A stretch of 64,000 bases of DNA from Chitinophagia bacterium (GTDB taxonomy: Bacteria > Bacteroidota > Bacteroidia > Chitinophagales > Chitinophagaceae). Location of the stretch: positions 17,778-81,777 of the forward strand of contig JBAXQE010000010.1 in the NCBI GenBank assembly GCA_037131895.1, given 5' to 3'. The translations under genes were made by a program, and so were the position numbers. The notes below the pieces were generated by a model. That model had not been told where the DNA came from. It searched no databases and was given only the letters and a program-made list of their open reading frames with translations. Below, piece after piece: positions 1,925-61,029 of this stretch; positions within the stretch are counted from its first letter, which is position 1; each line of letters begins with the position of its first letter.

Positions 1925-2584
1925 ATTAGTTTTGTTTTATTTCTGTAAGTTGAAGATTGTTAAAGTAATTTAAATTTTATTTACAGCATATCCAAATAAT
2001 TTTTTATGGAAGCGCATTTACCTTGAAAAACTATTAATTTATCTATTCATAAATTAAATTTATATAAATAGATGTACCTACTTTAAAGTAATTGCGAAAA
2101 TTAAAGAGATGAGCTGCATGTAATAAATTAAAATTTTTTTTGCAAAAAAGAGATGCTATTAAACGTTGATAGTTTCTGATATGTAAGAATTTCATAAATT
2201 AATGAAATACTACATCATGCACCGAATTGCATTTCTTATTTTGAGGGGTCCTTAAATTGCCCTCTATGTATGATTGGAATCAGAAATTACAGCCTAAAAA
2301 ATATCAACAAAAAAAATCCCTACCTTACCATTTTGTTCTATGATTACTTGTACGATTCTTAAAACTATTTGTTTAACCCTGCTGCTACTGAATTTGGAGT
2401 TTCTTTTTCACTGATGGCAGTAAATTCACCAATATTTTTAAAATTTGCAAATAGAAAGCTAAGCTTACAATTCCTGTTAAAAAATGTAGAAATGGATAAA
2501 TTGTATCTGAAAAATCAACCAATTTTATCTAACAGTTAAGTCTATTCTTTTCAAAAAAACACAAACAGTTAATCCCTTTAACTT

Positions 2585-4045
2585 TTAATGGTGTTTTATT
2601 CTTTTAACCACACCTCCGGATGTTTCTTTAATAGTATTAGCAAACACAAATGCTGCAGGATCTATTTCAGTAATAAGGTTTTTGAGTCTCCTAAGTTCTA
2701 AGCGGGTAATTACCGTGAAAATAATGTCACAATCGTTGCTGATACCATATTTTCCGGGTAAAAAGCCCCTTTCTCCTTTATAAATAGTAATACCTTTTCC
2801 CATTGTATTCACCAATTGGTACTTGATTACTTCACTTTTCGCAGAAATAATCGTTACTCCGGTATACGCTTGAATACCCTCTACCACATAGTCTATACAG
2901 CGTGTAGCTGCAAAATAAGTAAGAATTGAATAGAGGGCAGTTTCTAATCCAAATTTGGAGGCAGCAATCGAAAATATTATAATATTAATTCCTAAAATAA
3001 TTTCTGTAATGGTAAATGAACTTCTCCTTAAAGTATACAATGCTACCACCTCTATTCCATCTAACGCAGCACCCGCGCGCATAACTAACCCCACACCTGT
3101 ACCTAAAAATGCCCCTCCAAATAGGGAAATCAACAATTTGTCGTGGGTTAAAGGGAAGCTGGGAATAATTTGCAACAATATAGCTAATAGGAGAACTCCA
3201 AAGCACATTCGAATTGAAAATCGCAAACTTACCATAAAATAGCCGACAATCATCAGCGGCAAATTCAAGAAAATGAGCAATAGTCCCAAATTGAAATGTG
3301 TGCTTTCGTGAATCAATAGTGCCATTCCAGTAACCCCCCCATCAAAAAAATGGTTCGGTACCAAAAATCCATCTAAAGCTATGGCTGCTAGTCCGGCACC
3401 TGCCACCATTAACAAGGCATCGCGAACCTGTTTAATTAAGTTTTGTCTTTTGGTTGAAGGAGAAGAACTTTGAGCCAAAACCCTAAGTTGTTTCAGATGT
3501 TCCTGCTTAAGTGGTTCAAAAGTAGTGAGGGCGTAATCGGTAAAATATTTATGACTCGAAATAAAATTTAGCTGAACCTGATTCCAGTCTGCTTTTGCCG
3601 CTAATAATCCGAGTTTGCGTAATTCCTGTTCCAGATGCACAGCTGTTGAATAATAATCGTCAGTACCCAAATAACATAGATCGGCATCGCATACAATTTT
3701 TGCGAGCAGGTTCTGAGGACTCTGCGGCACTTTAGTAGCTAAAATGATGGCAGCAATCTGGTCGATTTGTTCCAGACTATACCCATAATCCGGGAGCCAT
3801 TTTTTGGCATATAGGCAGGAAGTTTCCTCATGATTAAGATGATTTTGTAAATAGCCAACATCATGAAGTAATGCCGCAGTTTTTACTATTAGCATTTCAT
3901 CTTCTGTTAATCTTTCATGGCTTCCAATTTTTTCTGCCATGGTAACAACTTGCTCCGTATGAGAGGTGTTATGATAAGTGAGCTGGTCCGACAGTCCTTC
4001 ATTAAGCTTCTGAATAACAAAAGGATATAATAAATCAAATTGCAT
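2585..4045 (-). CDS. HD-domain phosphohydrolase fused to a YitT-family membrane protein (C-terminal DUF2179-like domain)
   Basis: N-terminal YHN..HT, ALLHDVGY, NHEE, CDADL (HD motifs); then multi-TM YitT signature FLVPNHFFDGGVTG, GGAFLGTGVGL and the C-terminal GITIYKGERG..IDPAAFV. Confidence 0.85.
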   Translation of the reverse strand: MQFDLLYPFVIQKLNEGLSDQLTYHNTSHTEQVVTMAEKIGSHERLTEDEMLIVKTAALLHDVGYLQNHLNHEETSCLYAKKWLPDYGYSLEQIDQIAAIILATKVPQSPQNLLAKIVCDADLCYLGTDDYYSTAVHLEQELRKLGLLAAKADWNQVQLNFISSHKYFTDYALTTFEPLKQEHLKQLRVLAQSSSPSTKRQNLIKQVRDALLMVAGAGLAAIALDGFLVPNHFFDGGVTGMALLIHESTHFNLGLLLIFLNLPLMIVGYFMVSLRFSIRMCFGVLLLAILLQIIPSFPLTHDKLLISLFGGAFLGTGVGLVMRAGAALDGIEVVALYTLRRSSFTITEIILGINIIIFSIAASKFGLETALYSILTYFAATRCIDYVVEGIQAYTGVTIISAKSEVIKYQLVNTMGKGITIYKGERGFLPGKYGISNDCDIIFTVITRLELRRLKNLITEIDPAAFVFANTIKETSGGVVKRIKHH

Positions 4046-18299: not shown

Positions 18300-19017
18300 A
18301 ATGATATATTTATAAGGTTACATAAATTAAGTAGATTCCCTTTTTGCAATAATTTATTATTTTTTGGTTTACAATTTTTGCCCATATCGCTCACTTAATC
18401 TTACAAAAGTTCTTTTGCAAATATCAGAATGTTGGAAATATTTGGTATAGTGATTTCCATTGAAATTTGGCATGAACCTCCCCTATATAGATAATCATTA
18501 TAAAAATTGTTTCAATATCGTCTCATTCATTAAATGAATAAATTGCTTTTTCTTTTTAAGGGATTCGCAATTATGTTTATTGGTCATTAATTTAATCTAT
18601 TTTATTATACAAATTTCTTAAAGCGCTAAAATTTCTTGCTTAAAGTTATTTTTTTGATTTTTTTATCCAATTTGACCTAACTACCCTTTTGAATTAGCTA
18701 ACTTTTAAATCAATTAAAAATTTCCCCAGAATATTTAGTTGCAATTTTTGTGGGCTATTTATAATTTAACTATACTAATACTATTTTCGAAAAGGGGTTT
18801 TTCTCCACAGCATCTTGCATCTAGGGCTGGTTGTTTACTTTGAGGAACGAACTAACCACTTATTTTTATCACCAATTTTTGGTCAATTCTTTATTTCTGC
18901 CAGCCCCTTTTTCCCACCATTTTCTCTCTTCATTTAAACCCCACTGCCAACCCATAACCTCAAAAAATTGCAACCTCGCGCAGGCGGAATTTAATTAGAA
19001 TTATACATCCTAAATAT

Positions 19018-19031
19018 CGGTGTATTCACCG
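19018..19031. promoter_or_regulatory. Candidate response-regulator operator CGGTGTATTCACCG
   Basis: Pseudo-palindrome similar to motifs at 18793, 48351, 49361, 49384 and 49797. Confidence 0.4.
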
Positions 19032-19210
19032 TTTTATTACTCCGTATAATCACTGAATTTTGTTGGGCTGTTAAGTAATAAATAATTGATATTCAACTTT
19101 CTACATATTTTTATGCGTCTCAATAGTATAAAATTGACTGGTTTATATACACCTACTCTACTTATTTTGGTGATGTGTTTTTCATTTATAAACCCATCAA
19201 TCAACCACTC

Positions 19211-19684
19211 ATGAAAATGAATTTCTCCGCCGGTAAATGGTGTTGGCTGTTTATCGGAATTGCATTCACTGCTTGCAACAAGCAGAACGATTCTCCCACT
19301 ACCCCTACAGCGCCCCAAATGGTGCAAGCACTTAAGGGGGATAGTTCGGTAAACGGACTCATCACCGCCCTTACCGCAACTGCCCTCAAAAACAGCTTTA
19401 TTGAAAAGCGAGGCGACCAGGAAACCCGCCTGGTAAAAATTTCGGTGAAGGATTTAATCAATTACCTCCACCAGATGCAAACCAATGCCTATACCGATTC
19501 AATCGGCATTCACATGGGCATCTATACCGCAGCTACTGTTCCCGAGGCTCATCCCGATTATGTGGGCAAATCAACCCTCTATTTTTCGGTATTTCCAGCA
19601 GGTAATCCGGCTACTTCGGGTATCAAAATTTTCGGTAATTCAAACGGCAACACCTTCTTAAATCACGGAACCCTATATCCTTAA
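19211..19684 (+). CDS. Hypothetical lipoprotein, first gene of the signalling cassette
   Basis: Lipobox FTA-C after a hydrophobic stretch (start ATG 19211 or 19217); stop overlaps the next start. Confidence 0.75.
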   Translation: MKMNFSAGKWCWLFIGIAFTACNKQNDSPTTPTAPQMVQALKGDSSVNGLITALTATALKNSFIEKRGDQETRLVKISVKDLINYLHQMQTNAYTDSIGIHMGIYTAATVPEAHPDYVGKSTLYFSVFPAGNPATSGIKIFGNSNGNTFLNHGTLYP

Positions 19685-20346
19685 TGCTATCTATTTTATT
19701 TCTTTTATTGTGGCAGTTACTCACCCTAACCTTAACTGGGGTGGTATACTATAAACAACGCAATTCCGGATTTTTGTTAGTAGCGGGGTTACTGCTTTTA
19801 CAAATACTGGCGAATATTTTTCAGCTGGAGGTATTTAGCAGTAACCCCTTATTTTTTCGAATTCAGTATGCCATTAATTTTCTTTCAGTTGCCGGCTACG
19901 CCTTTTTATTGCTGCTGCAGTTGAATCATCCACACTATAAGCATTTTGCAAAGGCTATACTAGTCTGTTTTACTTGTGCAGCCATTTACTTGCTTTGGAT
20001 ACCATACGATTTACTAATAACCTATATCAACTACCTATTGGTAGCCGCCTCCATTTGTATGGTGCTGCTTAGTGTTCGATACTTATACGAAACAGCCATC
20101 AATCCTCCTATGCCGCTACCACATAGTTCCTTTCCACCCTTTGTTTGGATGGCGGCAGGACTCTGCTGTTATTTCTTATCCATGTCGCTACTGCATGCCT
20201 TTTACGGTTGGCTGCACCAAATAACGCTGCCGGTATCGGGAAGCTGGATTTTTAATCAGGTAAATCAAGTACTGTTGGTGGCTTTGTATATTTTTTTCAG
20301 CGTAGCCCTTTTGATAGGCATACCCAAATCGAAATCATGTATATAA
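19684..20346 (+). CDS. Hypothetical 7-TM membrane protein (putative sensor)
   Basis: Seven hydrophobic segments; PFVWMAAGLCCY in helix 6; coupled to the flanking genes. Confidence 0.8.
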   Translation: MLSILFLLLWQLLTLTLTGVVYYKQRNSGFLLVAGLLLLQILANIFQLEVFSSNPLFFRIQYAINFLSVAGYAFLLLLQLNHPHYKHFAKAILVCFTCAAIYLLWIPYDLLITYINYLLVAASICMVLLSVRYLYETAINPPMPLPHSSFPPFVWMAAGLCCYFLSMSLLHAFYGWLHQITLPVSGSWIFNQVNQVLLVALYIFFSVALLIGIPKSKSCI

Positions 20347-20558
20347 ATCTTTTTGTAAGGAATGTCACCTCTTTCATTATTGCCGCTTCTATTTTGGTGA
20401 GGCTGGATAAGCATTTTTTTCAACCGAATACTGAAAAATTGTTGGGATGGAAAAGCAGTTACTTTCGTATGCATTTTATACAGGGCCGGGTGAATATACA
20501 AACTTATGGCACTGGAACCTGTGTACCCCTATCCGTTCCTATAAGTAAAGCCGAATGA
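20337..20558 (+). pseudogene. Internally deleted NarX-type histidine kinase remnant (N-terminal hydrophobic stub + last HATPase strands)
   Basis: C-terminus GWKSSYFRMHFIQGRVNIQTYGTGTCVPLSVP resembles the GLxNIxSRVxFLxGxxxIxSxxxGTxIxIxIP tail of HisKA_3 kinases; ATGA overlap with the response regulator; H-box and N-box absent. Confidence 0.6.
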
Positions 20559-21217
20559 ACACGAAAGTTGCTGTTGTGGATGATCACCAGTTGGTCCGTA
20601 TCGGATTGGTGCAGATGGTTCAGGCACTTCCCGGGTGGGAGGTAACGATTGAAGCCGCTAATGGCAAAGATTTTATAGATCAAACCAATTTATTATCACC
20701 CCCCGATATTGTACTGTTAGATATTCGCATGCCCATCATGGATGGCTATGAAACTGCCTTGTGGATCCGATCCCATTTACCCGAAACCCGCGTATTAGTG
20801 GTATCTATGGTTAGTCGCGAACCTGCAATAATCCGCATGTTGCGACTGGGGGTTTACGGATTTATTACCAAAGAAAGTACCCAGGCCGAATTGCACCAAG
20901 CCCTGATTCGGATACAACAAAAACAATTTCATGTAAATGAATTAGTGGGTAATCGCATATTTCATTATTTCTCCGAAAACTCCACCGAACAATTACCCGA
21001 CGAAAAAAATGATATTACCGACCGAGAATTTATTTTTTTGCGCAAATGTTGCAGCGAATTAACCTATCGCCAAATTGCAAAGGAAATGCATGTGAGTCCG
21101 CGTACCATCGATACCTATCGAGATCATTTATTCGAAAAGTTGCAGGTACGTACCCGGGTAGGACTAGTAATTTATGCCCTCCGTACTGGCCTGATAGAGG
21201 TGGATGATTTGGTGTAG
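20555..21217 (+). CDS. NarL/LuxR-family response regulator
   Basis: VVDDH, LLDIRMPIMDG (phospho-Asp), GFITK; HTH TYRQIAKEMHVSPRTIDTYR. Confidence 0.95.
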   Translation: MNTKVAVVDDHQLVRIGLVQMVQALPGWEVTIEAANGKDFIDQTNLLSPPDIVLLDIRMPIMDGYETALWIRSHLPETRVLVVSMVSREPAIIRMLRLGVYGFITKESTQAELHQALIRIQQKQFHVNELVGNRIFHYFSENSTEQLPDEKNDITDREFIFLRKCCSELTYRQIAKEMHVSPRTIDTYRDHLFEKLQVRTRVGLVIYALRTGLIEVDDLV

Positions 21218-39147: not shown

Positions 39148-42100
39148 TTAGAAAACAAAATTTACATTAAACCCATAACTGCGTGTTGTAGGCGTTTGAA
39201 GATCGTATTCTCTGCTATTTCCGCTGTTGTAATTCCGACCTGAATATTGGTCAACATCCATATCTTTAAAACGACTAGGGAAGAAATATAATAGGTTACG
39301 ACCAACAAGGGAAACATCAATTTTGGATATAAATGTCTTCTTGCCTAAAAACTTAGTAGGTACTGAATATGTAATTACTACCTCTCTCAGTTTTGCATAT
39401 GTTTTTTTAACAGAAGTATGTTCAAAATCATTAAAGAAACTACTTACATAGTCTTGAATATAATTAACTACACCTGTATTATTTACATATTTTAAGGCAC
39501 CAGCATTGGTAATTACACCAGTAATTGGATCATAGGTAATTGCAGGGCTGCCCGCAGCCAATTGAACTCCTTCTCCAACATAGGTACCCTTAAAGCCCGG
39601 TACAGCAGAGAAACTGTTTGTAGCAGCATTATATACTACATTTTTTGCTTCAATTGCTCTTGCTGCTCCTACAGCGCCTTCAACAGTAGATATATTCGAT
39701 CCACCCTCTATACCTTTACGCATAACTCTATCCTGAACCATTCCACCAACTTTGCCATCAAATTGGAAAGAGAAGCTAAATTGTTTATAATAAAACTTGT
39801 TATAAATCGACCAAGACCAATCTACATCTGCATTACCAACGTACTGGGCTTTGGGTAAATAGATTGGATAACCAGCACTATTGTTTATTACTTGGCCATC
39901 AGTTGTTTTTGCAGTAACACCAGCATATAATTTATCTACTCGATCACCCTGTTGGAATTGGTAATTGGCGAAGTTTGCAGGCAAATCTTTATAAGTCTCT
40001 TTATAAGTAGACCAGTTTAGAATCACATCCCAGTTTAAACCTTGGGCATTTTTCAAAGGAGATCCGTTTACTGTTATTTCAGCACCCTTCACCTGGGTTT
40101 TAATAGCATTAGTTGTAAAACCACTTAAACCGGTTGTTTGAGATAAGGGATAATTTCTAATACCAGGACCAATTATATTGTTAAATAATGTTACGGAAGC
40201 ACCTAAACGATTTTTTATAAACCGAACGTCAAATCCATATTCTAAACTGCTGGTTTCAGATGATTTTATATTAGGATCTAGAACGGTTGAAGGGGCACTT
40301 GCTCCAGATTGTCCATTATATACAGTTCCAATAGAATAAGCTGGATTTGCTAAAGAATAAGAAGGACCTCCATAGGCAGAAACATAAGGTGATCCATAAC
40401 CTATAGGATAACCAGCTGGTCCGATGTAAGGAGAAGTACTAGGTGCTTTTGCTTGTGCATAAGAAGCTCTAACCTTCAAAAAGCTGATTGATGAAGGTAA
40501 TTTTAAATAATCTGATAATACACTAGCTCCTGAAAATGATGGATAGAAATAGGTATTATTATTTAACAACAAAGTAGAATTTTTGTCTGCACGTCCGGTG
40601 GCAGTTAAAGAAAAATATTTATTAAAATCTACATTAATTGAATAATAAGCACTCAATACCAACATTTTTGAATTGAAATTGTAGGCTCTAACAGGATTTA
40701 ATGAATTAGAAAATGAATATAAGCCCGGTACGTTCAGATAATCGGTAGTTACAAAGCTTGATCTATATTCAAAATTTCTTGCATTAACACCTCCTAAAAC
40801 ATCATAGGTAATCCCACCTTTCAACTTGTTATTATATTTTACAAATGCCTCAACGTTATTATCGAATAAAGAACGTTGATCTTCTCTGTAATCACCTCTA
40901 TTCAACTCCCTTCCATAAGGATGCGCTGAGTATGGCATTTTTTCAGTTCTTAAAACGTCATTTGTTGACAAATTGGTTCTTAAAGTGGCTTCTAAATGCT
41001 TATTGGGAGTATAAGTTAATGAAACGTTACCAGTGATATCATTTTTGGTATGTCCTCTTAACCATTCATAACTTACAAAATAAGGATTGTGGTACCGCTG
41101 ATATTCGGCGAAAATTGATTGAACACCTTCTTTACCTGGCTGCCAATAATTTTTCATATCATCAATATTCCAATCCGCACCTGTCCAAACAGTAACAGTA
41201 TAGATAACGCTGTTTGGTCCATAAACTACATCAGGAATGTTAGGAGAGAATTGGCGATTGTAATTTAAGGTACCTTCAATTTTCAACTTGCTGCTTAAAT
41301 TATAGCTAGCATTAATATTGAAATTAATGGTATTTAATTTGGTATTCGGAATGATACCTTTTTGGTTCGTGTGGGTTAACGACATACGGATACTTGAACG
41401 ATCCGTTGCAGATGAAAAACTAAGATTATTTGTGGTTAATAAACCTGGACGAATAAAGCGCTTTAAATTGTCAACGCCTCTAGCGACATAAGGAGTTGCT
41501 TTTCTAACTCCAGTTACAGGGTCAATTGGACTATCATACTGAGGAATTAATTGCCCATTTAAGGCAGGTCCCCAAACATCATAATCTCCATCATTTAATC
41601 CACCTCCCTTTCCATCTCCAAAAATATAAGTAGAGTAATCACCCCCTCCATATAAAGCTTGTGTTTTTGGAAGAGCAATAAATCCTTTGTTTACTTGCGT
41701 GCTAGAATTAAACTCAATGGTATAGCCCTTGTCATTTTTTTTACCTCTTTTGGTAGTAATTAGAATGGCTCCATTCTGAGCACGGCTTCCATAAATAGCA
41801 GTTGCTGCAAGACCTTTCAATATGGTATAGGATTCAATATCATCTGGACTAAGATTCCAAGTATCCGATGTAATGGGTATACCATCTACTACATATAAAC
41901 TAATGTTATATCCACGAAATGACACATTTGGAGAAGCTAGCATCTCTTGGTTGATAGCAACATCAAGACCAGCAACTTTACCTACTAAGCTGTTTACTGG
42001 ATTTACTTCTCTTGCTTTTACTAAATCAGATCCTTTCACCTCTTGAACTGAATACCCCAATTTCTTGGTTTCTTTTTTTACTCCTAATGAAGTTACTACA

Positions 42101-42426
42101 ACTTCATTTAAATTTTCAGCTACTCTTTCTAATTTAACTGAAATAAATGAACCATTGGCAACAACTTTCTGACTGTTGTAACCAACAATAGAAACTGTGA
42201 TAGTGCTGCTACTTTTAACACCATCCAATTGAAATTCACCTGCGTTATTAGTTTTTGCATTCAAATTTTGGCCAGCAACAACTACACTAGCCATTTCAAT
42301 TGGTTTGCCGGTTTCGGCATCTACTACTTTTCCCTTTACCTGAACATTCTGTGAAAAGGCGGTTAGGCCAATACACATAAATAGGAGGGTAGAGAATACC
42401 CATGTTAGTTTTGATTGCTTGCCCAT
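39148..42426 (-). CDS. susC: SusC/RagA-family TonB-dependent transporter
   Basis: N-terminal extension, EVVVTSLG, YVVDGIP, DDIESYTILKG..ATAIYGSRAQNGAILITTK; C-terminal PTTRSYGFNVNFVF. Confidence 0.97.
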   Translation of the reverse strand: MGKQSKLTWVFSTLLFMCIGLTAFSQNVQVKGKVVDAETGKPIEMASVVVAGQNLNAKTNNAGEFQLDGVKSSSTITVSIVGYNSQKVVANGSFISVKLERVAENLNEVVVTSLGVKKETKKLGYSVQEVKGSDLVKAREVNPVNSLVGKVAGLDVAINQEMLASPNVSFRGYNISLYVVDGIPITSDTWNLSPDDIESYTILKGLAATAIYGSRAQNGAILITTKRGKKNDKGYTIEFNSSTQVNKGFIALPKTQALYGGGDYSTYIFGDGKGGGLNDGDYDVWGPALNGQLIPQYDSPIDPVTGVRKATPYVARGVDNLKRFIRPGLLTTNNLSFSSATDRSSIRMSLTHTNQKGIIPNTKLNTINFNINASYNLSSKLKIEGTLNYNRQFSPNIPDVVYGPNSVIYTVTVWTGADWNIDDMKNYWQPGKEGVQSIFAEYQRYHNPYFVSYEWLRGHTKNDITGNVSLTYTPNKHLEATLRTNLSTNDVLRTEKMPYSAHPYGRELNRGDYREDQRSLFDNNVEAFVKYNNKLKGGITYDVLGGVNARNFEYRSSFVTTDYLNVPGLYSFSNSLNPVRAYNFNSKMLVLSAYYSINVDFNKYFSLTATGRADKNSTLLLNNNTYFYPSFSGASVLSDYLKLPSSISFLKVRASYAQAKAPSTSPYIGPAGYPIGYGSPYVSAYGGPSYSLANPAYSIGTVYNGQSGASAPSTVLDPNIKSSETSSLEYGFDVRFIKNRLGASVTLFNNIIGPGIRNYPLSQTTGLSGFTTNAIKTQVKGAEITVNGSPLKNAQGLNWDVILNWSTYKETYKDLPANFANYQFQQGDRVDKLYAGVTAKTTDGQVINNSAGYPIYLPKAQYVGNADVDWSWSIYNKFYYKQFSFSFQFDGKVGGMVQDRVMRKGIEGGSNISTVEGAVGAARAIEAKNVVYNAATNSFSAVPGFKGTYVGEGVQLAAGSPAITYDPITGVITNAGALKYVNNTGVVNYIQDYVSSFFNDFEHTSVKKTYAKLREVVITYSVPTKFLGKKTFISKIDVSLVGRNLLYFFPSRFKDMDVDQYSGRNYNSGNSREYDLQTPTTRSYGFNVNFVF

Positions 42427-42440
42427 AATTTTTTAATTAA

Positions 42441-42530
42441 TTAGGTGACAAAACTATTGACAACCCTTTAACATATTGTTTAACAAATATGATGATAGCG
42501 TTATGCAATTGTTACCGCAATGTAAACATG
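42441..42530 (-). promoter_or_regulatory. 11-12-bp periodic direct repeats upstream of susC (Pho-box-like)
   Basis: Minus strand: tttac-gtaac-ataac at 11-bp period, then TGTTAAA/TGTTAAA/TGTCAAT/TGTCACC at 12/11/12-bp period. Confidence 0.4.
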
Positions 42531-42594
42531 CGAAATGGAGGGTATTATTACAAATTAAATTTTGAAAAAACTAACTTCTGTAAGCTTAGTTTAA

Positions 42595-43638
42595 TTATAT
42601 GCCAGTTGCAAGCTGAGAGAAGTTTTCCTGATAATTTGCAGATTTACTTAAGGCATAACCCTTTTCTACTACCAATCGAATCAACTGTTCAGTTGAATGA
42701 GTAAGGGTCAGGGATTGCGGATGGGGTGCAGATAGCCAATTGGATACATGTTCGTGGAAAGTATGATCCATTTTAAGTAATACAGGTATATTTCTTTTAA
42801 TTAATGCAGCTGCATTGCAAAGCTGCTCATACTGGCCTCTAATTGGAAGCGCCAATAATTTTTTTCCCAGGTAAAGTGTTTCAGCAGGTGTTTCAAATCC
42901 CGCTCCAGTGATAACACCCGTACTTTCTATCATGCTTGTAGTAAATGCTGCATTATTCACTGGAAAGTAAGAACAGTTTCCTTCGGTATAGGAAGATTTT
43001 ACAAGGGGTGAAAATATTTCGAAACGAATGCCATCCATTTTTTTAAGTTCTTTCTGTATTTCCTGCAAGCCGTAATGCGGCAAGTAAACAGTTATATGGC
43101 CTTTGTCAACTGGGTTGGCTTGTAAAATCTGTTCTTTAATAATAGGATTATAGATATTATTATCATACGAATCGAAGTGCAATCCAACATATTCCTGTGC
43201 CCAACCATAATACCGCAATATCATTTCGCCAAACCTGTCTTTTTTTTCTGGACGTGGGGTAAGCGTACTCTGAAAGCTTGCCTGATGTCCAAAACCAATA
43301 CTCGCTTTACCACTTAATTTACAAGCTAATGAAGTAATGCTTTCAAAGTCATTAATTACTAAGTCATAGTTGTTTACTGGTAAATTCCTTGCTTCTTTTA
43401 TTGCTTTACCTATTTGTAGTTCTTTGGCAATTTTCCAATAATCTAATTTCCCCATGGGTGCATAAAACAAGCTCAAACCCTTGCTACGAAAACGGATTGG
43501 TAAGTCAACTGGAAGATGGCAGTTACTGCCACTTAAGAAAACATCTACTTCGCCATATTTTTTCAAGTAAGGAAGTATTTCTTTCGCCCTTGCGATGTGT
43601 CCATTTCCAGTAGCCTGAACAGCGTATAAAATTTTCAT
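42595..43638 (-). CDS. Glycosyltransferase, MJ1255/VC2487 (TIGR00661-like) family
   Basis: MKILYAVQATGNGHIARA, VINDFE, GHQA, ITGAGFETPAETLYLGK, GQYEQLCNA. Confidence 0.9.
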   Translation of the reverse strand: MKILYAVQATGNGHIARAKEILPYLKKYGEVDVFLSGSNCHLPVDLPIRFRSKGLSLFYAPMGKLDYWKIAKELQIGKAIKEARNLPVNNYDLVINDFESITSLACKLSGKASIGFGHQASFQSTLTPRPEKKDRFGEMILRYYGWAQEYVGLHFDSYDNNIYNPIIKEQILQANPVDKGHITVYLPHYGLQEIQKELKKMDGIRFEIFSPLVKSSYTEGNCSYFPVNNAAFTTSMIESTGVITGAGFETPAETLYLGKKLLALPIRGQYEQLCNAAALIKRNIPVLLKMDHTFHEHVSNWLSAPHPQSLTLTHSTEQLIRLVVEKGYALSKSANYQENFSQLATGI

Positions 43639-43643
43639 AAGAA

Positions 43644-44528
43644 CTATTTTACAGAAGTAGCATTCAATATTAATTGTTCAGCTAACAGATCTTCGATGGA
43701 TAATGCTTTTCGTATAGGTACCACAGGAGTTTTTTGAGTGCTGGCTTTTTGATTTTGTTCATCGTATTGATAAATAGTCCATGCACAATTGTCGTATTCC
43801 AAAGCCGTTAGGTTTTCTATCCAGTCGCCACTATTTAGATACACTACAGATCCTTTGTCTGTTTTAACAATACGATGTTGAGGCTGATGGATGTGTCCAC
43901 AAATCACATACTCATATCCATTCTCTATGGCTAATTCCGCAGCGGTTTGTTCAAAATTTCCGATCCAAGAAACCGCTTTTTTTACTCCATTTTTCACCTT
44001 TTTACTCAAACTCATCTTTTCCCTTCCTACTAATTGGAGTAAATAATTGATGGAGCGATTGAGTAAAATCAATAAATCGTAGCCATATCCACCGAGTTTC
44101 GCTATAATTTTTGCTGAGCCCTTAGTCGTTCTGTCAAAAACATCTCCATGGAAAATCCAAGTTTTTTTACCATCTAGTTCTAATACCCATTTATCGGTTA
44201 ATTGCAATTGGCCAATCGTTAAGTCGCTATACCTGCGCATAATTTCATCATGATTGCCGGTAATGTAAACTACTTTTGTACCCAAACTAAGCAGACTGAA
44301 AATTTCTTTTATCACCTGCATGTGAGATTGTGGGAAATAGCGCTTATTAAATTGCCAGATATCTATTATATCACCATTTAATACTAAAGTTTCTGGTTGA
44401 ATGCTCCGGAGATATTGAATAAGTTCGGTGGCGTGGCAGCCAAATGTGCCTAGATGTACGTCGCTGATAACAACCAATTCAACGCTTCTTCTACTCATAA
44501 TAAGGGTTTGCCAAAATTGAAACTGCAT
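43644..44528 (-). CDS. Metallophosphoesterase of the UDP-2,3-diacylglucosamine hydrolase / PlcP-like family
   Basis: ISDVHLGT, NGDIIDIW, GNHDE, HGDVFD, ICGHIHQP, YLNSGDWIENLTALEY. Confidence 0.9.
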   Translation of the reverse strand: MQFQFWQTLIMSRRSVELVVISDVHLGTFGCHATELIQYLRSIQPETLVLNGDIIDIWQFNKRYFPQSHMQVIKEIFSLLSLGTKVVYITGNHDEIMRRYSDLTIGQLQLTDKWVLELDGKKTWIFHGDVFDRTTKGSAKIIAKLGGYGYDLLILLNRSINYLLQLVGREKMSLSKKVKNGVKKAVSWIGNFEQTAAELAIENGYEYVICGHIHQPQHRIVKTDKGSVVYLNSGDWIENLTALEYDNCAWTIYQYDEQNQKASTQKTPVVPIRKALSIEDLLAEQLILNATSVK

Positions 44529-44646
44529 TGTTATCTTAGCTTTACGAGAATATTAACCTATCGTAAATTTTACTTTAACAAATTGTAAACAAATAGGTTA
44601 TTTATACGATTTAAGGCTATTCTAAGTTAATTATCAATTAAATTAT

Positions 44647-45999
44647 ATGATAACAGCTGAAGAATTTGGAGGAGATTTTTTGTGGGGCGCTGGCATCTCT
44701 GCACCTCAAAATGAAGGAGCTGCTTTGGAGGATGGGAGAGGACTATCCGTGTGGGATGTATTTTCTCGCAGGGTAGCCGTTATTCGGGGAGGTACCAAGC
44801 CAACGGTTACCAGTGATTTTTATCATCGATATAAAGAGGATCTGTTACTAGCGAAGGCGCTGGGCTTCTCTGCCTTTCGGTTTTCAATTTCATGGAGTAG
44901 GATTTTACCTGCCGGAACTGGTAAAATAAACCAAGCTGGACTAAAATTTTACCATGCTGTTATAGATGAGTGCTTATTGTTAGGACTTACGCCCGTGGTA
45001 ACATTGTATCATTGGGATTTGCCACAGGCTTTGCAAAAGGAAGGTGGGTGGGCGAATCATCATATAATAAAATGGTTTACACGGTATGTAAAAATATGTG
45101 TGCAGGAATTTACACCTAAAGTGCAACATTGGATCATCATTAATGAGCCATTGGCCTTTACTTCTTTGGGTTATATGACTGGTTTACATGCTCCTGGTAA
45201 AATTAGTGTGCAATCATTCTATTTGGCTGCCCACCATACAGCCCTTTGCACTGCAGAAGCCTCACGCCTTATTCGCCAGATTAATTCCAATGCAATTATA
45301 GGCAGCAGTTTCTCATTTAGTGAAACACATGCACACCGAAATCAGCCTGCCGATTTGCGTGCAGCCGAAAAGTCTGATTTAATACTTAACAGGTTTTTTT
45401 TAGAGCCAGCCTTGGGTATGGGATTTCCTATGATGGATGGATTTCCGGTAATAGAGAAATTTCATTTATTTAACCGTAGTTGGCGTTTTAAGGAAGCTAT
45501 GAAATGTGATTTGGATTTTGTTGGATTTCAAAACTATTTTCCGGTAACAGTAAGGCATAATCCACTAGTGCCCTATGTTGGTACTTCAGAAGTGAGTGCG
45601 AAAAGTCGTAAGGTTCCGCATACTGCGTTGGGGTGGGAAATTAATGCCGCCAGTTGTTACCGGATGTTGAGGAGAGTGGCAGATTATCCAGGCGTGAAAA
45701 AAATTATCGTAACCGAAGGCGGCTGTGCCGAAAAGGAAACGCTGCATCCCGGTAAAGTGGTCGACCCCCTGCGGATAAAGTATTTTCAGCAATACCTTCA
45801 AGCCGTTTTACAAGCTAAAAAAGAAGGGGTGCCCATTGATGGGTATTTTGTATGGACGCTCACCGACAATTTTGAATGGGCTTTCGGTTTCACTGCCCGT
45901 TTTGGTTTGGTTCGTGTGGATTTTGAAACTCAGTTACGAACCATCAAAGATTCTGGGTATTGGTTTAGAAATTTTTTAAGTGGCACCGGGGATCGTTAA
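44647..45999 (+). CDS. Glycoside hydrolase family 1 beta-glucosidase
   Basis: QNEGA, DFYHRY, RFSISWSR, TLYHWDLP, INEP (acid/base), VTEGG (nucleophile), WTLTDNFEWAFG..RFGL. Confidence 0.95.
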   Translation: MITAEEFGGDFLWGAGISAPQNEGAALEDGRGLSVWDVFSRRVAVIRGGTKPTVTSDFYHRYKEDLLLAKALGFSAFRFSISWSRILPAGTGKINQAGLKFYHAVIDECLLLGLTPVVTLYHWDLPQALQKEGGWANHHIIKWFTRYVKICVQEFTPKVQHWIIINEPLAFTSLGYMTGLHAPGKISVQSFYLAAHHTALCTAEASRLIRQINSNAIIGSSFSFSETHAHRNQPADLRAAEKSDLILNRFFLEPALGMGFPMMDGFPVIEKFHLFNRSWRFKEAMKCDLDFVGFQNYFPVTVRHNPLVPYVGTSEVSAKSRKVPHTALGWEINAASCYRMLRRVADYPGVKKIIVTEGGCAEKETLHPGKVVDPLRIKYFQQYLQAVLQAKKEGVPIDGYFVWTLTDNFEWAFGFTARFGLVRVDFETQLRTIKDSGYWFRNFLSGTGDR

Positions 46000-49923: not shown

Positions 49924-50709
49924 GTGCTCTACCTATTTGCCTTTACTTTTTTATTTCCGGTACTCTACTGGATGCTACAATCTTGGTTTATCCTAGTATT
50001 GTTTTTATTGGTATTGACTATAATTTCTATTGTTTACCTACTTTATTTATCCCAAAAATCTCGAAAAAGGTTAAAGATTGCCAAAGACATGCTTCGGGTA
50101 CAATTAGAGATACAGGACCTAACATTCTCTGCTATCAGTCACGAAATTCATGATAATGTTGGGCAAATTCTTAGTTTGGCTAAGGTTCAATTGAATTTAC
50201 TTTCAGAGGAGGAAATAAAAGAAGGAACATTATTAAACGATGCAAAAGAGAATATCAGCAATGCGTTGATTGATTTGCGCGAAATCGCTAAAAGCCTCTC
50301 TAACAAGAAATTAATTTCATTAGGTCTTTTATCTTCCATTCAACATGAAGCTCACCGATTAGAGGAAACGAATGGATGGGATGTGCAAGTGGCAGTGGAA
50401 GGAAATCCCCTTCCGGTAACCGAAACCCAGCATTTGGTAATATTTAGAGCAATTCAATATTTTCTTAACCGAATTACACAAATGGAAGCGGGCTCAAATA
50501 AAATATCCGTTACCATGGGCTTTTATCCACAAAACTGGCATATCAAAATAGTACACCACAGAAAAGATTCCGATATCAACCAGCAACAAGAACAACAATA
50601 TAACCAAGAACAATCCCTTGTTTTACGAAGATTAGCAATTATTGGGGGTACATTTACAGTAACAGAGAATGGTGAAACGCAGATATTAATACAGATACCT
50701 TATGCTTGA
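49924..50709 (+). CDS. HisKA_3 sensor histidine kinase with degenerate ATP-binding domain (pseudokinase)
   Basis: N-terminal TM; H-box ISHEIHDNVGQILS intact; N-box reads QYFLNRITQM; DxGxG and GxGL boxes replaced by HHRKDS and NQEQS. Confidence 0.85.
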   Translation: MLYLFAFTFLFPVLYWMLQSWFILVLFLLVLTIISIVYLLYLSQKSRKRLKIAKDMLRVQLEIQDLTFSAISHEIHDNVGQILSLAKVQLNLLSEEEIKEGTLLNDAKENISNALIDLREIAKSLSNKKLISLGLLSSIQHEAHRLEETNGWDVQVAVEGNPLPVTETQHLVIFRAIQYFLNRITQMEAGSNKISVTMGFYPQNWHIKIVHHRKDSDINQQQEQQYNQEQSLVLRRLAIIGGTFTVTENGETQILIQIPYA

Positions 50710-51361
50710 TAAACATAACATTGCAGTAGTGGATGATCACACTCTTTTTCGGAAGGGACTGATTTCTCTTATAAATGTTTTTCCAAATTTTGAAGTGATT
50801 TTGGAGGCTTCTAATGGGAAGGATTTTATTGAGCGACTGAATCCTGAGCAGTTACCCGAAATTGTGCTGATGGACATCTCCATGCCAGAAATGGATGGAT
50901 ATGCAACCTGCGAATGGCTGAAAAGTCATTACCCCGCCATTAAAGTGCTGGCCCTGAGTACTATGGATGCAGAAACCGCCATTATTAAAATGATTCGAAG
51001 TGGTGCTAAAGGCTATATTGTAAAAGATGCCGACCTCTCTGAACTTAAACTCGCGTTTTCCGAACTGCTTTCTATCGGCTTCTTTTATAATGAACTGGTT
51101 TCCAGAAAAGTTATTCACTCTATTAGTAGAATTGTTGAAGACAACGATGCAGTTACCGCCCTCCAAAAACTTTCAGACAATGAGTTAACATTTCTTCGAC
51201 TATCCTGCAGTGAAAAAACCTACCAGGAAATCGCCAACGAAATGTTTAAAAGCGAAAAAACCATTGATGGATACCGGGCCGAGTTGTTTAAAAAACTCAA
51301 TGTATCTAGCCGCGTTGGCATGGTAATGTATGCTATCAAAAACGGGATTGTTCAACTATAA
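50702..51361 (+). CDS. NarL/LuxR-family response regulator (paralog of 20555..21217)
   Basis: VVDDH, LMDISMPEMDG, GYIVK, TYQEIANEMFKSEKTIDGYR; overlaps the kinase stop. Confidence 0.95.
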   Translation: MLDKHNIAVVDDHTLFRKGLISLINVFPNFEVILEASNGKDFIERLNPEQLPEIVLMDISMPEMDGYATCEWLKSHYPAIKVLALSTMDAETAIIKMIRSGAKGYIVKDADLSELKLAFSELLSIGFFYNELVSRKVIHSISRIVEDNDAVTALQKLSDNELTFLRLSCSEKTYQEIANEMFKSEKTIDGYRAELFKKLNVSSRVGMVMYAIKNGIVQL

Positions 51362-58480: not shown

Positions 58481-59293
58481 TTACACACTCACATTAAAAT
58501 CGCGGAGTGCATCGTTCAGGCTCGTTTTTAAATCGGTACTGGCTTTTCTTTGTCCGATTATCAGGGCACAGCTAACAGCATAATCACCCGCAGGAAAACT
58601 TTTGGTATAGCTGCCAGGAATTACAACACTGCGTGCCGGAACACGGCCTCGGTATTCTACTGGTTCAGTTCCAGATACATCTATGATTTTTGTTGACTGG
58701 GTTAAAACCACATTTGCTCCCAATACCGCTTCGGCTTCTACTTTTACCCCTTCTACCACTATGCAGCGGCTACCGATAAAGCAACCATCTTCAATAATAA
58801 CTGGACTTGCCTGAAGCGGCTCTAACACCCCCCCAATACCTACGCCGCCACTCAGGTGCACATTTTTGCCAATCTGCGCACAACTACCCACAGTTGCCCA
58901 GGTATCTACCATCGTTCCCTCATCTACATAGGCACCAATATTTACATAGCTGGGCATCAACACCACATTTCTCGCGATATAGCTCCCAAACCTTGCAGTA
59001 GCAGGGGGTACAGCTCTTACGCCTAATTCCTGATAATTCTTCTTCAGCAACATTTTATCATAAAACTCAAAGGGCGGTAATTCCCAGGTTTGCATGTTTT
59101 GGATGCCGAAATATAACAAAATCGCTTGCTTCACCCACTCATTTACTACCCATCCGTTTTCAGTGGAACTCGCTACTCTCAGTCTTCCCTTGTCTACTTC
59201 TTCTATTACTGCCTTTACCCCCAATTGGTAGGGTTCTTCTTTTAAAAGTCCACGATCGGCCCAGGCAACTTCAATCATTATTTTCAATTCCAT
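58481..59293 (-). CDS. dapD: 2,3,4,5-tetrahydropyridine-2,6-dicarboxylate N-succinyltransferase
   Basis: NEWVKQAILLYF, RAVPPATAR, MPSYVNIGAYVDEGTMVDTWATVGSCAQIG, GGVLEPLQA; ATG 59293 preferred. Confidence 0.97.
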   Translation of the reverse strand: MELKIMIEVAWADRGLLKEEPYQLGVKAVIEEVDKGRLRVASSTENGWVVNEWVKQAILLYFGIQNMQTWELPPFEFYDKMLLKKNYQELGVRAVPPATARFGSYIARNVVLMPSYVNIGAYVDEGTMVDTWATVGSCAQIGKNVHLSGGVGIGGVLEPLQASPVIIEDGCFIGSRCIVVEGVKVEAEAVLGANVVLTQSTKIIDVSGTEPVEYRGRVPARSVVIPGSYTKSFPAGDYAVSCALIIGQRKASTDLKTSLNDALRDFNVSV

Positions 59294-59376
59294 GCTACTG
59301 ATTTTTTTGCAAACATACAATTTCAAAATTTTATGCTCCCTTATTTACCTGCATTGCGTAATTTAACGCCCACAAT

Positions 59377-59952
59377 ATGAGTTTTTCTTTTCAATACGAA
59401 GTTGATCAATGCATAGAACTGCTGGCTGCCGGGGGGATCATTTTGTATCCAACCGATACGGTTTGGGGTATAGGATGCGATGCCACCTGTTCGGAAGCAG
59501 TAGATCGGATTTACCAACTGAAACAACGAGCCGACCATAAAGCAATGATTGTTCTGGTGGCAGATGAAAGAGATATTTTGCAATATGTTGCCCAGCCAGA
59601 TTTACAGGTGTTCGACTATATAAAAGGGGTTCAACGGCCCACTACCATTATTTACGAAAATGCGGTAGGGCTTGCCGATAATCTGATTGCGCCAGACGGA
59701 TCGGTGGGTATCAGAATTTGCAATGATCTTTTTTGCCGGCATTTACTCAAGCGGTTGCGCAAACCTCTGGTAAGCACATCTGCCAATATTAGTGGTTACC
59801 CAGCACCCGGATGTTTTAGAGATATCGATGAGTGGATTGTTTCGGGGGTAGATTATGCTGTGCAATATCGCAGGGAAGAAACAGATACATTTCGTCCTTC
59901 CTCTGTTGTGAAATGGGAAAAAGACGGCTCCATTACCATTTTGCGTGCCTGA
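59377..59952 (+). CDS. tsaC: L-threonylcarbamoyladenylate synthase (Sua5/YrdC family)
   Basis: LYPTDTVWGIGCDA, IYQLKQR, GIRI, PLVSTSANISG. Confidence 0.93.
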   Translation: MSFSFQYEVDQCIELLAAGGIILYPTDTVWGIGCDATCSEAVDRIYQLKQRADHKAMIVLVADERDILQYVAQPDLQVFDYIKGVQRPTTIIYENAVGLADNLIAPDGSVGIRICNDLFCRHLLKRLRKPLVSTSANISGYPAPGCFRDIDEWIVSGVDYAVQYRREETDTFRPSSVVKWEKDGSITILRA

Positions 59953-60021
59953 TTTACCGAATTCATCGTTTTTTTACAGCTCTTTTTGCAGAAACCTGCA
60001 GTAGTGCTATACTTTTGCAGC

Positions 60022-61029
60022 ATGGCAAAAATCCTGCTCATTCAAACGGCTTTTATTGGCGATGCAGTATTAGCAACTGCTTTGCAGGAAAAAATTCATA
60101 CCTGGGATCCTACCATAGAAATACACTGGCTGGTTCGTGAGGGAAATGAATCGCTCTGGCAAGATCATCCCTATGTAAAAAAAGTATGGGTATGGCATAA
60201 ACAAAAACAGAAGTACCTCGAATTATTTCGTTTAATAAAAGCCATCAGAAAAGAGAGATATCAAAAAGTAATCAATGTTCAACGATTTGCTGCCACTGGT
60301 TTACTAACGATTTTTTCTGCTGCCAAAGAAACTATCGGGTTTGATAAAAATCCATTCTCCCGTTTCTTTACTACCGTTATTAAGCATCAGATTTCAACGG
60401 GAGATCAGCCCTTACACGAAACTGAACGGAACCAACTTTTAATAGCCGGATTTACGGATGCTATTCCTGCCAAACCCAAATTATATCCCACTGCAGCCCA
60501 TTACCAGAAAATCGCTGGGTACCAGTCAAAACCCTATATCTGCCTGGCACCAGCTTCTGTATGGTTTACCAAGCAGTTTCCCGCAGATCAGTGGGTTTCG
60601 TTAATAGATTCTATCCCACCAGTGTATACTATTTATTTGTTGGGTGCACCGAGCGATCGAAAATGGTGCGATCAGATTGTGCGTTCGGCGGCAAAAGGGA
60701 ATACCACAAATTTATGCGGGTTACTCAGTTTGTTAGAGTCTGCCGCCCTGCAATCAGGTGCTGTGATGAATTATGTAAATGATTCTGCTCCCATGCATTT
60801 TGCTTCGGCCATGAATGCGCCCGTTACCGCCATTTATTGCTCAACGCTGCCTGCATTTGGGTTTGGTCCACTCTCCGATAATCGGCACTTGGTTCAAACC
60901 ACCCATTCCCTAAGCTGCCGTCCCTGTGGCTTGCATGGCAAAATGGCCTGCCCCGAAAAACATTTCCAGTGTGCAAGTACTATTACAACCCAGCAGTTGC
61001 TGAACACATTGCCGAATTTCACCAACTGA
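60022..61029 (+). CDS. Glycosyltransferase family 9 (heptosyltransferase-like)
   Basis: [40 protein letters not shown]; ATG 60022 preferred over 59986. Confidence 0.92.

Follow-up and report, generated by a model that had tools for sequence, protein, structure and literature searches.

At positions 19211–21217 on the + strand of the window (the whole 64-kb stretch of DNA that was analysed, from a Chitinophagia bacterium) lie four open reading frames (ORFs), the start of each overlapping the stop of the one before it. The first encodes a lipoprotein of 157 residues (19211–19684), the second a stand-alone seven-helix membrane protein of 220 residues (hereafter the 7TM protein; 19684–20346), and the last a NarL/LuxR-type response regulator, also of 220 residues (20555–21217); the third, an open frame of 73 codons (20337–20558), is identified by DNA alignment and tblastn as the remnant, or stub, of a kinase gene. 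The lipoprotein stop and the 7TM start are joined in TAATG, the stub shares 10 nucleotides (nt) with the 3′ end of the 7TM gene, and the stub and the regulator gene overlap in ATGA. Alignment further delimits a conserved, putative control region on the same strand at 18978–19062; no ABC transporter was found near the cassette among the ORFs of the window. What appears to be new at this locus is an old, clade-wide, in-frame kinase deletion in which the accessory genes are still under selection, the stub drifts but stays open, and complementary kinase modules lacking a regulator are found elsewhere.

Genes of the cassette and their upstream region

An initial annotation, made from the DNA letters, had already described four overlapping genes headed by a lipoprotein (FTAC, NHGTLYP), a 7TM protein without a cytoplasmic domain and an intact NarL/LuxR regulator, a description with which our analysis agrees. 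The lipoprotein starts MKMNFSAGKWCWLFIGIAFTAC, with an n-region (MKMNFSAGK), a hydrophobic core and the FTAC lipobox, and its C-terminal tail (LNHGTLYP) fits the N-H/Y-G-x-x-x-P tail of an uncatalogued family of small partner proteins, to which it belongs; in other genomes its homologues are encoded ahead of 7TM genes. The lipoprotein, the 7TM protein and the stub each lack a Pfam or NCBIfam family match. The AlphaFold2 model of the lipoprotein is weak (predicted local distance difference test, pLDDT, 67); a Foldseek search of the PDB with this low-confidence model returned no structural relative, and a profile search no PDB sequence relative. The 36 nt preceding the lipoprotein ATG (19175–19210) are near-identical even at a locus where the 7TM protein shows only 57% identity, and a GTG allows them to be read in the lipoprotein frame (MFFIYKPINQPL-MKMNF...). 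They are either a conserved leader or part of the coding sequence, whose true start would then lie farther upstream.

The AlphaFold2 model of the 7TM protein, built from a 10-sequence alignment, shows seven long helices and lacks a soluble domain (pLDDT 84; predicted template-modelling score 0.79). Because Lys and Arg residues follow helices 1, 3 and 7, the N-terminus is likely to lie outside and the C-terminus inside, according to the positive-inside rule. The window protein has no Pfam match at E<1, ten diverse homologues gave only stray sub-threshold Pfam matches (DUF6962, 0.045; DUF3522, 0.005; Zip, 0.001), and a profile search found no PDB sequence relative. Comparison of the model with the PDB using Foldseek revealed only a generic likeness to seven-helix bundles (E≥0.02; best E 0.024, template-modelling score ~0.46). 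The invariant residues in the alignment are Y, W, G and P, with no catalytic set of His or Asp among them. The catalogued seven-helix receptor and sensor families that we considered (7TMR-DISM, GPCR-like, rhodopsin and CREST/PAQR) were rejected, there being no significant match in sequence or structure; the 7TM protein is thus best assigned to an uncatalogued family.

The regulator contains Response_reg (Pfam E 2e-23) and GerE (E 2e-11; residues 154–208) domains. Its best NCBIfam models are NarL and UvrY/GacA (E ~1e-29, ~102 bits), and since these scores fall below the equivalog cut-offs of 250–280, we class it as a member of the NarL/FixJ (LuxR-type) family that is an orthologue of neither. 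The phospho-acceptor pocket is complete (D9, D10, D56, S84 and K106) and invariant in 11 lineages.

The region at 18978–19062 holds a block, CCTCGCGCAGGCGGAATTTA, and a direct repeat, CGGTGTATTCAC / CCGTATAATCAC, with the two copies 24 nt apart. In the alignment it is near-invariant in lineages with the kinase deletion, in lineages with an intact kinase, and at the locus with the 57%-identical 7TM protein, and the repeat pair is unique to this site in the 2.88-Mb genome. We therefore regard the direct repeat as a candidate regulator-binding site. It is followed by a weak candidate promoter of the Bacteroidota type, with TTG at 19086 and TATTTTTA at 19106 (one mismatch). A scan for sigma-70 promoters and terminators gave no more matches than expected by chance, and one for Bacteroidota-type promoters gave one-mismatch candidates only; a genome-wide search with the repeat motif for a wider regulon matched only the operon's own promoter.

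The 73-codon ORF is a kinase remnant

Metagenomes and metagenome-assembled genomes (MAGs) contain close homologues of the 7TM protein (82–96% identical). At two loci, L022 (a JGI contig) and L063 (Sediminibacterium sp. EUL_015), the 7TM gene is followed by an intact gene for a 254-residue kinase and then by the regulator gene, the overlaps (10 nt and ATGA) being identical to those of the window stub. This kinase has one N-terminal transmembrane (TM) helix, a HisKA_3 and a HATPase_c domain, and no sensor domain; in Pfam searches the intact orthologues matched HATPase_c at E 1e-8 to 1e-9 and HisKA_3 at E 7e-4, the latter slightly short of the Pfam cut-off.

Alignment of the DNA shows that the intact gene (765 nt) and the stub (222 nt) differ by 543 nt, in frame. 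The two align gap-free from the 3′ end, and the first 21 nt of the stub match the kinase 5′ end at 16 of 21 positions. When the L022 kinase was compared with the whole genome by tblastn, the stub was matched with 48% identity over 52 residues (E 1.3e-10), and a hidden Markov model (HMM) of the kinase matches stubs in four other genomes at E ~1e-7. The kinase homology of the ORF, on which the initial annotation had staked its case, is thereby upheld, as is its claim that the kinase has been deleted here, given the 543-nt gap relative to L022 and L063. Its statement that both kinase termini are retained needs qualification: the C-terminal 52–63 codons are homologous to the end of HATPase_c, whilst the kinase N-terminus supplies only the first 7–18 codons. 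The junction lies between nt 21 and ~55, positions from nt 28 to 58 scoring near-equally.

The deletion took away all or most of the TM helix, the dimerisation and histidine phosphotransfer (DHp) domain, including its phospho-accepting His, and the N box, and it left no working G1 box, the sequence DNGVGFD being degraded to ILVRLD; only the segment from G2 to the end is kept. The stub thus has neither the DHp domain with its H box nor the complete HATPase_c domain of a HisKA_3 kinase. Taken together, these comparisons identify the 73-codon ORF as the leftover of an in-frame deletion of 543 nt in a gene for a 254-residue, one-TM HisKA_3 kinase. A CGGT microhomology pair is present at the ends of the deleted segment in L022 and absent in L063, and we claim no mechanism for the deletion.

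A single, old deletion in a freshwater clade

The 222-nt stub is present in nine independent assemblies, namely the window and loci L020 (an NCBI MAG), L025 and L030 (ENA), L029, and L060, L061, L062 and L064 (species-representative MAGs), with sources that include Lake Mendota, Lac Pavin, Umea and other freshwater sets. Its occurrence in nine independent assemblies excludes an assembly artefact at the junction. A tree built from the 7TM and regulator genes unites the nine carriers in one clade, with 100% bootstrap support, against the two intact lineages, which shows that a single deletion took place in an ancestor of a freshwater Sediminibacterium clade. This deletion is old, as synonymous divergence (dS) within the clade reaches ~0.45–0.5.

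A search of this genome and of four sister genomes found no second copy of the cognate kinase, the next-best hits being at most 26% identical, which indicates that the kinase has not been relocated elsewhere in the genome. Because there is no other cognate copy, the regulator would have to be served in trans or to work unphosphorylated, as the initial annotation had foreseen.

Between the window and L020, the regulator genes differ by a dS of 0.07 and the 7TM genes by 0.26, a contrast that suggests recombination inside the cassette.

Selection on the surviving genes and probable selection on the open frame of the stub

Within the kinase-less clade, the ratio of non-synonymous to synonymous substitution rates (ω), obtained from substitutions counted on the tree, is 0.19 for the lipoprotein, 0.26 for the 7TM protein and 0.10 for the regulator (each P≤1e-19 against neutrality), and 0.72 for the stub (P 0.08); Fisher tests of each of the three genes against the stub gave P values from 3e-7 to 1e-15. 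In the two intact lineages the corresponding values are 0.08 (lipoprotein), 0.29 (7TM protein), 0.19 (regulator) and 0.25 (kinase), with 0.15 for the last 63 codons of the kinase. The lipoprotein, 7TM and regulator genes, which carry no disruptions in any of the nine stub lineages, thus have been kept under purifying selection since the deletion, with no sign of relaxation for the 7TM protein and the regulator, and at most a slight relaxation for the lipoprotein.

The stub has accumulated 121 parsimony changes in its 222 nt, spread near-evenly over the three codon positions (34/41/46), and contains no stop codon and no insertion or deletion in any of the nine lineages. In simulations that matched the observed changes branch by branch in number and type, all nine frames stayed open in 0.1–0.2% of runs when sites were treated as uniform, and in 0.2–0.7% when regional rates were kept; the outcome was unchanged on the stub's own tree. 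The simplest reading is that selection acts on the openness of the frame and not on the stub peptide, and we infer that the stub no longer encodes a functional protein.

An explanation may lie in the overlaps between the genes. Ribosomes leaving the 7TM gene would traverse the open stub to reach the ATGA start of the regulator gene, and early termination within the stub would uncouple translation or cause polarity, so that the frame would be kept open. According to two studies, Bacteroidota mRNAs have no Shine–Dalgarno sites and the ribosomes ignore such sites (PMC6847099, PMC7797042). A dependence of the regulator on translational coupling is plausible because initiation in Bacteroidota proceeds without Shine–Dalgarno sites, and the stub, which drifts yet stays open, makes a clean candidate for work on such coupling in bacteria of this kind.

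One stretch inside the stub, TTGGGATGGAAAAGCAGTTACTTTCG (20439–20466), is almost invariant across all lineages, including the intact kinase genes, with 1 change in 18 nt here, whereas each of the bins up to nt 180 has 9–17. A weak match to a Bacteroidota-type promoter (TTTG/ATTG, 18 nt, TACTTTCG) overlaps this stretch, which, by analogy with saeP3 inside saeQ, might provide the regulator gene with an internal promoter or an RNA signal.

A widespread module in Bacteroidota

Loci from the same genus have a lipoprotein (with a tail reading NHGSIWP, NHGGIYP or NHGTIWP), a 7TM protein, a one-TM kinase of ~260 residues and a NarL regulator, in that order. Directly upstream of the cassette at ‘group A’ loci in the genus, genes for an ABC ATPase and an FtsX-like permease are often present. 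A profile made from ten 7TM proteins matched 2,854 clusters (50% identity) at E≤1e-3, and 685 at E≤1e-10, in a search of 1.8 billion representatives; nearly all of the 150 clusters listed contain proteins of ~215 residues, a length that leaves no room for a fused kinase.

An even sample of 301 Bacteroidota genomes yielded 7TM matches in 30, and 29 loci were retrieved. A short HisKA_3 kinase gene directly follows the 7TM gene at 25 of these 29 loci and is mostly followed in turn by a NarL regulator gene; the four exceptions include the three weakest matches. The predicted co-occurrence of the 7TM protein with kinase and regulator genes is thus confirmed. The predicted four-gene order (lipoprotein, 7TM, HisKA_3, LuxR) holds at the same-genus loci, although across the sample the small upstream protein is less constant, being detected by HMM at ~8 of the 29 loci. 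Tails of its homologues include NHGSIWP, NHGGIYP and NYGNIGRPP, and because some members have no signal peptide, the lipoprotein character does not appear to be constant in this family.

The window cassette has the 7TM protein and the tail-bearing protein and lacks a functional one-TM kinase; by gene content we place it in a widespread, uncharacterised four-gene module of Bacteroidota, of which our literature searches returned no description. Gene order would have the lipoprotein and the 7TM protein feeding the kinase. They may do more than that, because in the stub clade they remain under selection without it, and since a kinase-less clade exists, the accessory proteins cannot serve solely to control the neighbouring kinase, as the simplest model would have it. 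The cassette amounts to a natural knockout of the module, the kinase having long been lost whilst the presumed sensors and the regulator are still selected, and matched intact (L063, L022) and deleted (window) orthologues are available for comparison.

Losses of other parts, and gains, were also observed. The group-A cassette at L016 (genome G010), a locus at sister-genus level, consists of lipoprotein, 7TM and kinase genes with no regulator, the kinase stop being only 192 nt from the next gene at the place that the regulator gene occupies in relatives; partial loss of the module runs in both directions within the genus. Tandem duplications of the 7TM gene, or of 7TM–kinase pairs, occur within single loci at L014 (genome G016), L045, L076 and L077.

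Comparison with characterised two-component systems

The closest working analogue is SaePQRS of Staphylococcus aureus, in which a lipoprotein (SaeP) and a small polytopic membrane protein (SaeQ) form a ternary complex with SaeS, an intramembrane-sensing kinase without a sensor domain, and thereby switch on its phosphatase activity; SaeR is the regulator, and the operon, which is auto-induced, contains an internal promoter that drives the regulator and kinase genes (PMC5083920, PMC3748130). The likeness lies in the four-gene set of lipoprotein, polytopic membrane protein, sensor-less kinase and regulator. It is one of organisation and not of family membership. No sequence relationship emerged, in that neither accessory protein has a Pfam, NCBIfam or PDB relative, the Sae proteins not having been compared directly. 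SaeQ has 4 TM helices in 157 residues, in contrast to 7 helices in 220 residues for the window 7TM protein; SaeS belongs to a HisKA/OmpR-type system, whereas the module here is of the HisKA_3/NarL type; and the sae operon, which is from another phylum, places the regulator before the kinase, a gene which is deleted in the window.

In the LiaFSR and VraTSR systems, which respond to envelope stress in Firmicutes, a minimally anchored HisKA_3 kinase and a NarL regulator are controlled by a separate membrane protein of the same operon. LiaF and VraT, however, are not seven-helix proteins and belong to catalogued families, of which no domain was detected in the window proteins; Lia has no lipoprotein partner, and Bacteroidota are diderm. 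In Bce-type modules the kinase likewise senses via another membrane protein, and the ABC ATPase and FtsX-like permease genes upstream of the group-A loci are reminiscent of that arrangement, but BceS/BceR are of the HisKA/OmpR type and their partner is a transporter rather than a 7TM protein. Detailed studies of two-component kinases that lack a sensor domain and depend on separate membrane proteins are confined to Firmicutes (Lia, Vra, Bce and Sae); the module described here looks like a widespread Bacteroidota counterpart, assembled from two protein families that are uncatalogued in the databases.

With orphan and atypical NarL-family regulators the window cassette shares the lack of an adjoining cognate kinase gene. 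It differs from them in that an in-frame stub still marks the loss, the accessory sensor genes have been kept, and the phospho-acceptor pocket is fully conserved, whereas many phosphorylation-independent regulators have degenerate pockets.

Possible signalling without the cognate kinase

The retention of D9, D10, D56, S84 and K106 in all lineages suggests that the regulator is still phosphorylated, most likely in trans by a sensor-less paralogue of the lost kinase. The genome encodes five further HisKA_3 kinases whose catalytic motifs are intact, at 59705–60508, 41367–43073 and 43103–44806 of contig C1, at 29026–29826 of contig C20, and, as a hybrid kinase, on contig C5. The first of these belongs to a module on contig C1 (~58680–60508; positions 2182–4009 of locus L065), where genes for a 95-residue small protein (tail GCPTPPGCKTK), a 227-residue 7TM protein and a 267-residue one-TM HisKA_3 kinase are followed by an M1 peptidase gene, with no regulator gene downstream; nor was a NarL-type regulator gene found anywhere on contig C1. 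Orthologues of this module (84–92% identity) are present in G339, G340, G341 and G343, that is, in all four stub-carrying sister genomes, and are in tandem in two of them. They too have no regulator downstream where the locus reaches far enough, the G343 locus ending just past the kinase. The stub clade thus appears to hold complementary fragments, with sensor and regulator in the cassette, and sensor and kinase in the C1-type modules.

These regulator-less modules of a 7TM protein and a one-TM kinase, on C1 and in the four sister genomes, would be the best candidates for phosphorylation in trans, which we consider plausible; the retained lipoprotein and 7TM protein would then either modulate a foreign kinase or be a regulated output of the operon. 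At eight positions of the regulator the stub clade is distinct from the intact lineages; residues 23–25, at the end of helix α1, account for three of these, and one lies beside K106. Established work on two-component specificity assigns the end of helix α1 and the vicinity of K106 to the kinase-docking surface. The changes there are a hint of re-pairing, with only two outgroup sequences available for the comparison. The kinase-less cassette thereby predicts specific cross-talk partners that can be tested. Contig C1 also carries, at 41367–44806, two tandem and mutually very similar kinases of ~568 residues with a multi-helix membrane domain, HAMP and HisKA_3.

We assign a probability of roughly 60% to the overall account, in which the locus is a member of the module, a single event deleted its kinase, the other three genes have been retained, the stub serves as a ribosome relay, and the regulator is phosphorylated in trans. 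Several points weigh against it. Under the strictest null, in which the same codons are hit with position and base randomised, the frames stay open in 5% of simulations (P = 0.05). The regulon motif rests on one promoter. In a distant same-genus homologue of the C1 module, the regulator is closer to the product of window 50702–51361 (59%) than to the cassette regulator (45%), so that the C1 kinase may serve the former instead. Lastly, easy cross-talk is not predicted, because the DHp helix of the lost kinase (ELHDDAGQQMIVL) is unlike that of all the remaining kinases (EIHDNVGQxLSL).

The gene at 50702–51361 encodes an intact NarL regulator and overlaps, at its start, a gene for a 261-residue short HisKA_3 kinase (49924–50709, + strand) which has no 7TM gene upstream. 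This kinase has an intact H box (SHEIHDNVGQ) and no HATPase_c match, and its ATP-binding motifs are degenerate, with G1 (DxGxG) reading HHRKDSD, G2 QEQS and G3 NGET; the product is probably an ATP-blind pseudokinase.

The foremost alternative to phosphorylation in trans is that the regulator manages without a dedicated kinase and activates its own operon, constitutively or in tune with metabolism, in an unphosphorylated form or after phosphorylation by acetyl phosphate, with the lipoprotein and 7TM protein as an output serving an envelope function. Purifying selection on these two proteins after the loss of their kinase, the conserved operator-like repeat present only at the operon's own promoter, and the absence of any remaining kinase resembling the lost one in its DHp helix all speak for such an arrangement. 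However, the joining of 7TM and kinase genes at 25 of 29 loci indicates a kinase-directed role for the 7TM protein, and both the invariance of the five pocket residues, few sites though these are, and a regulator ω no higher than in the kinase-bearing relatives argue the other way, so that we regard this explanation as possible but doubtful.

More speculatively, the lipoprotein–7TM pair could be a portable sensor that can be plugged onto different paralogous sensor-less kinases in a cross-wired network, with the stub selected for openness only. In this Sediminibacterium clade the cassette (with no kinase), the C1 modules (with no regulator) and the 49924–51361 pair (with a degenerate kinase) would then belong to one network, in which several 7TM sensors pass their signals to common kinases and regulators.

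Direct control of the regulator by the 7TM protein and lipoprotein, for example by binding or sequestration at the membrane, would render the kinase dispensable. The three surviving genes have indeed been retained together, overlapping and co-oriented, in nine lineages, and differences between the clades in the 7TM protein concentrate on cytoplasmic loop 5 and the C-terminal tail. Such control is without precedent in the 7TM family, though, and since several differences in the tail fall where the gene overlaps the start region of the kinase, they may be side effects of the deletion; we consider it improbable.

That the 73-codon ORF is instead a functional small protein is very improbable. Its frame is open at exactly 73 codons in all nine lineages, with the strongest conservation in the 3′ third, but its ω is not significantly below 1, the changes fall evenly over the codon positions, residues 5–35 are almost wholly different in L025, and a third of an ATPase domain would not be expected to fold alone; in the conserved stretches, moreover, synonymous sites have been preserved as well, pointing to a signal at the nucleic-acid level. 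Scarcely credible, finally, is the view of the whole cassette as a recently inactivated, decaying locus, for which the destroyed kinase and the loss of parts at sister loci, such as that without a regulator in G010, might be cited, since the deletion is old and yet the three genes have remained undisrupted, at ω values of 0.10–0.26, in nine lineages. Both of these last two readings are rejected on the selection data.

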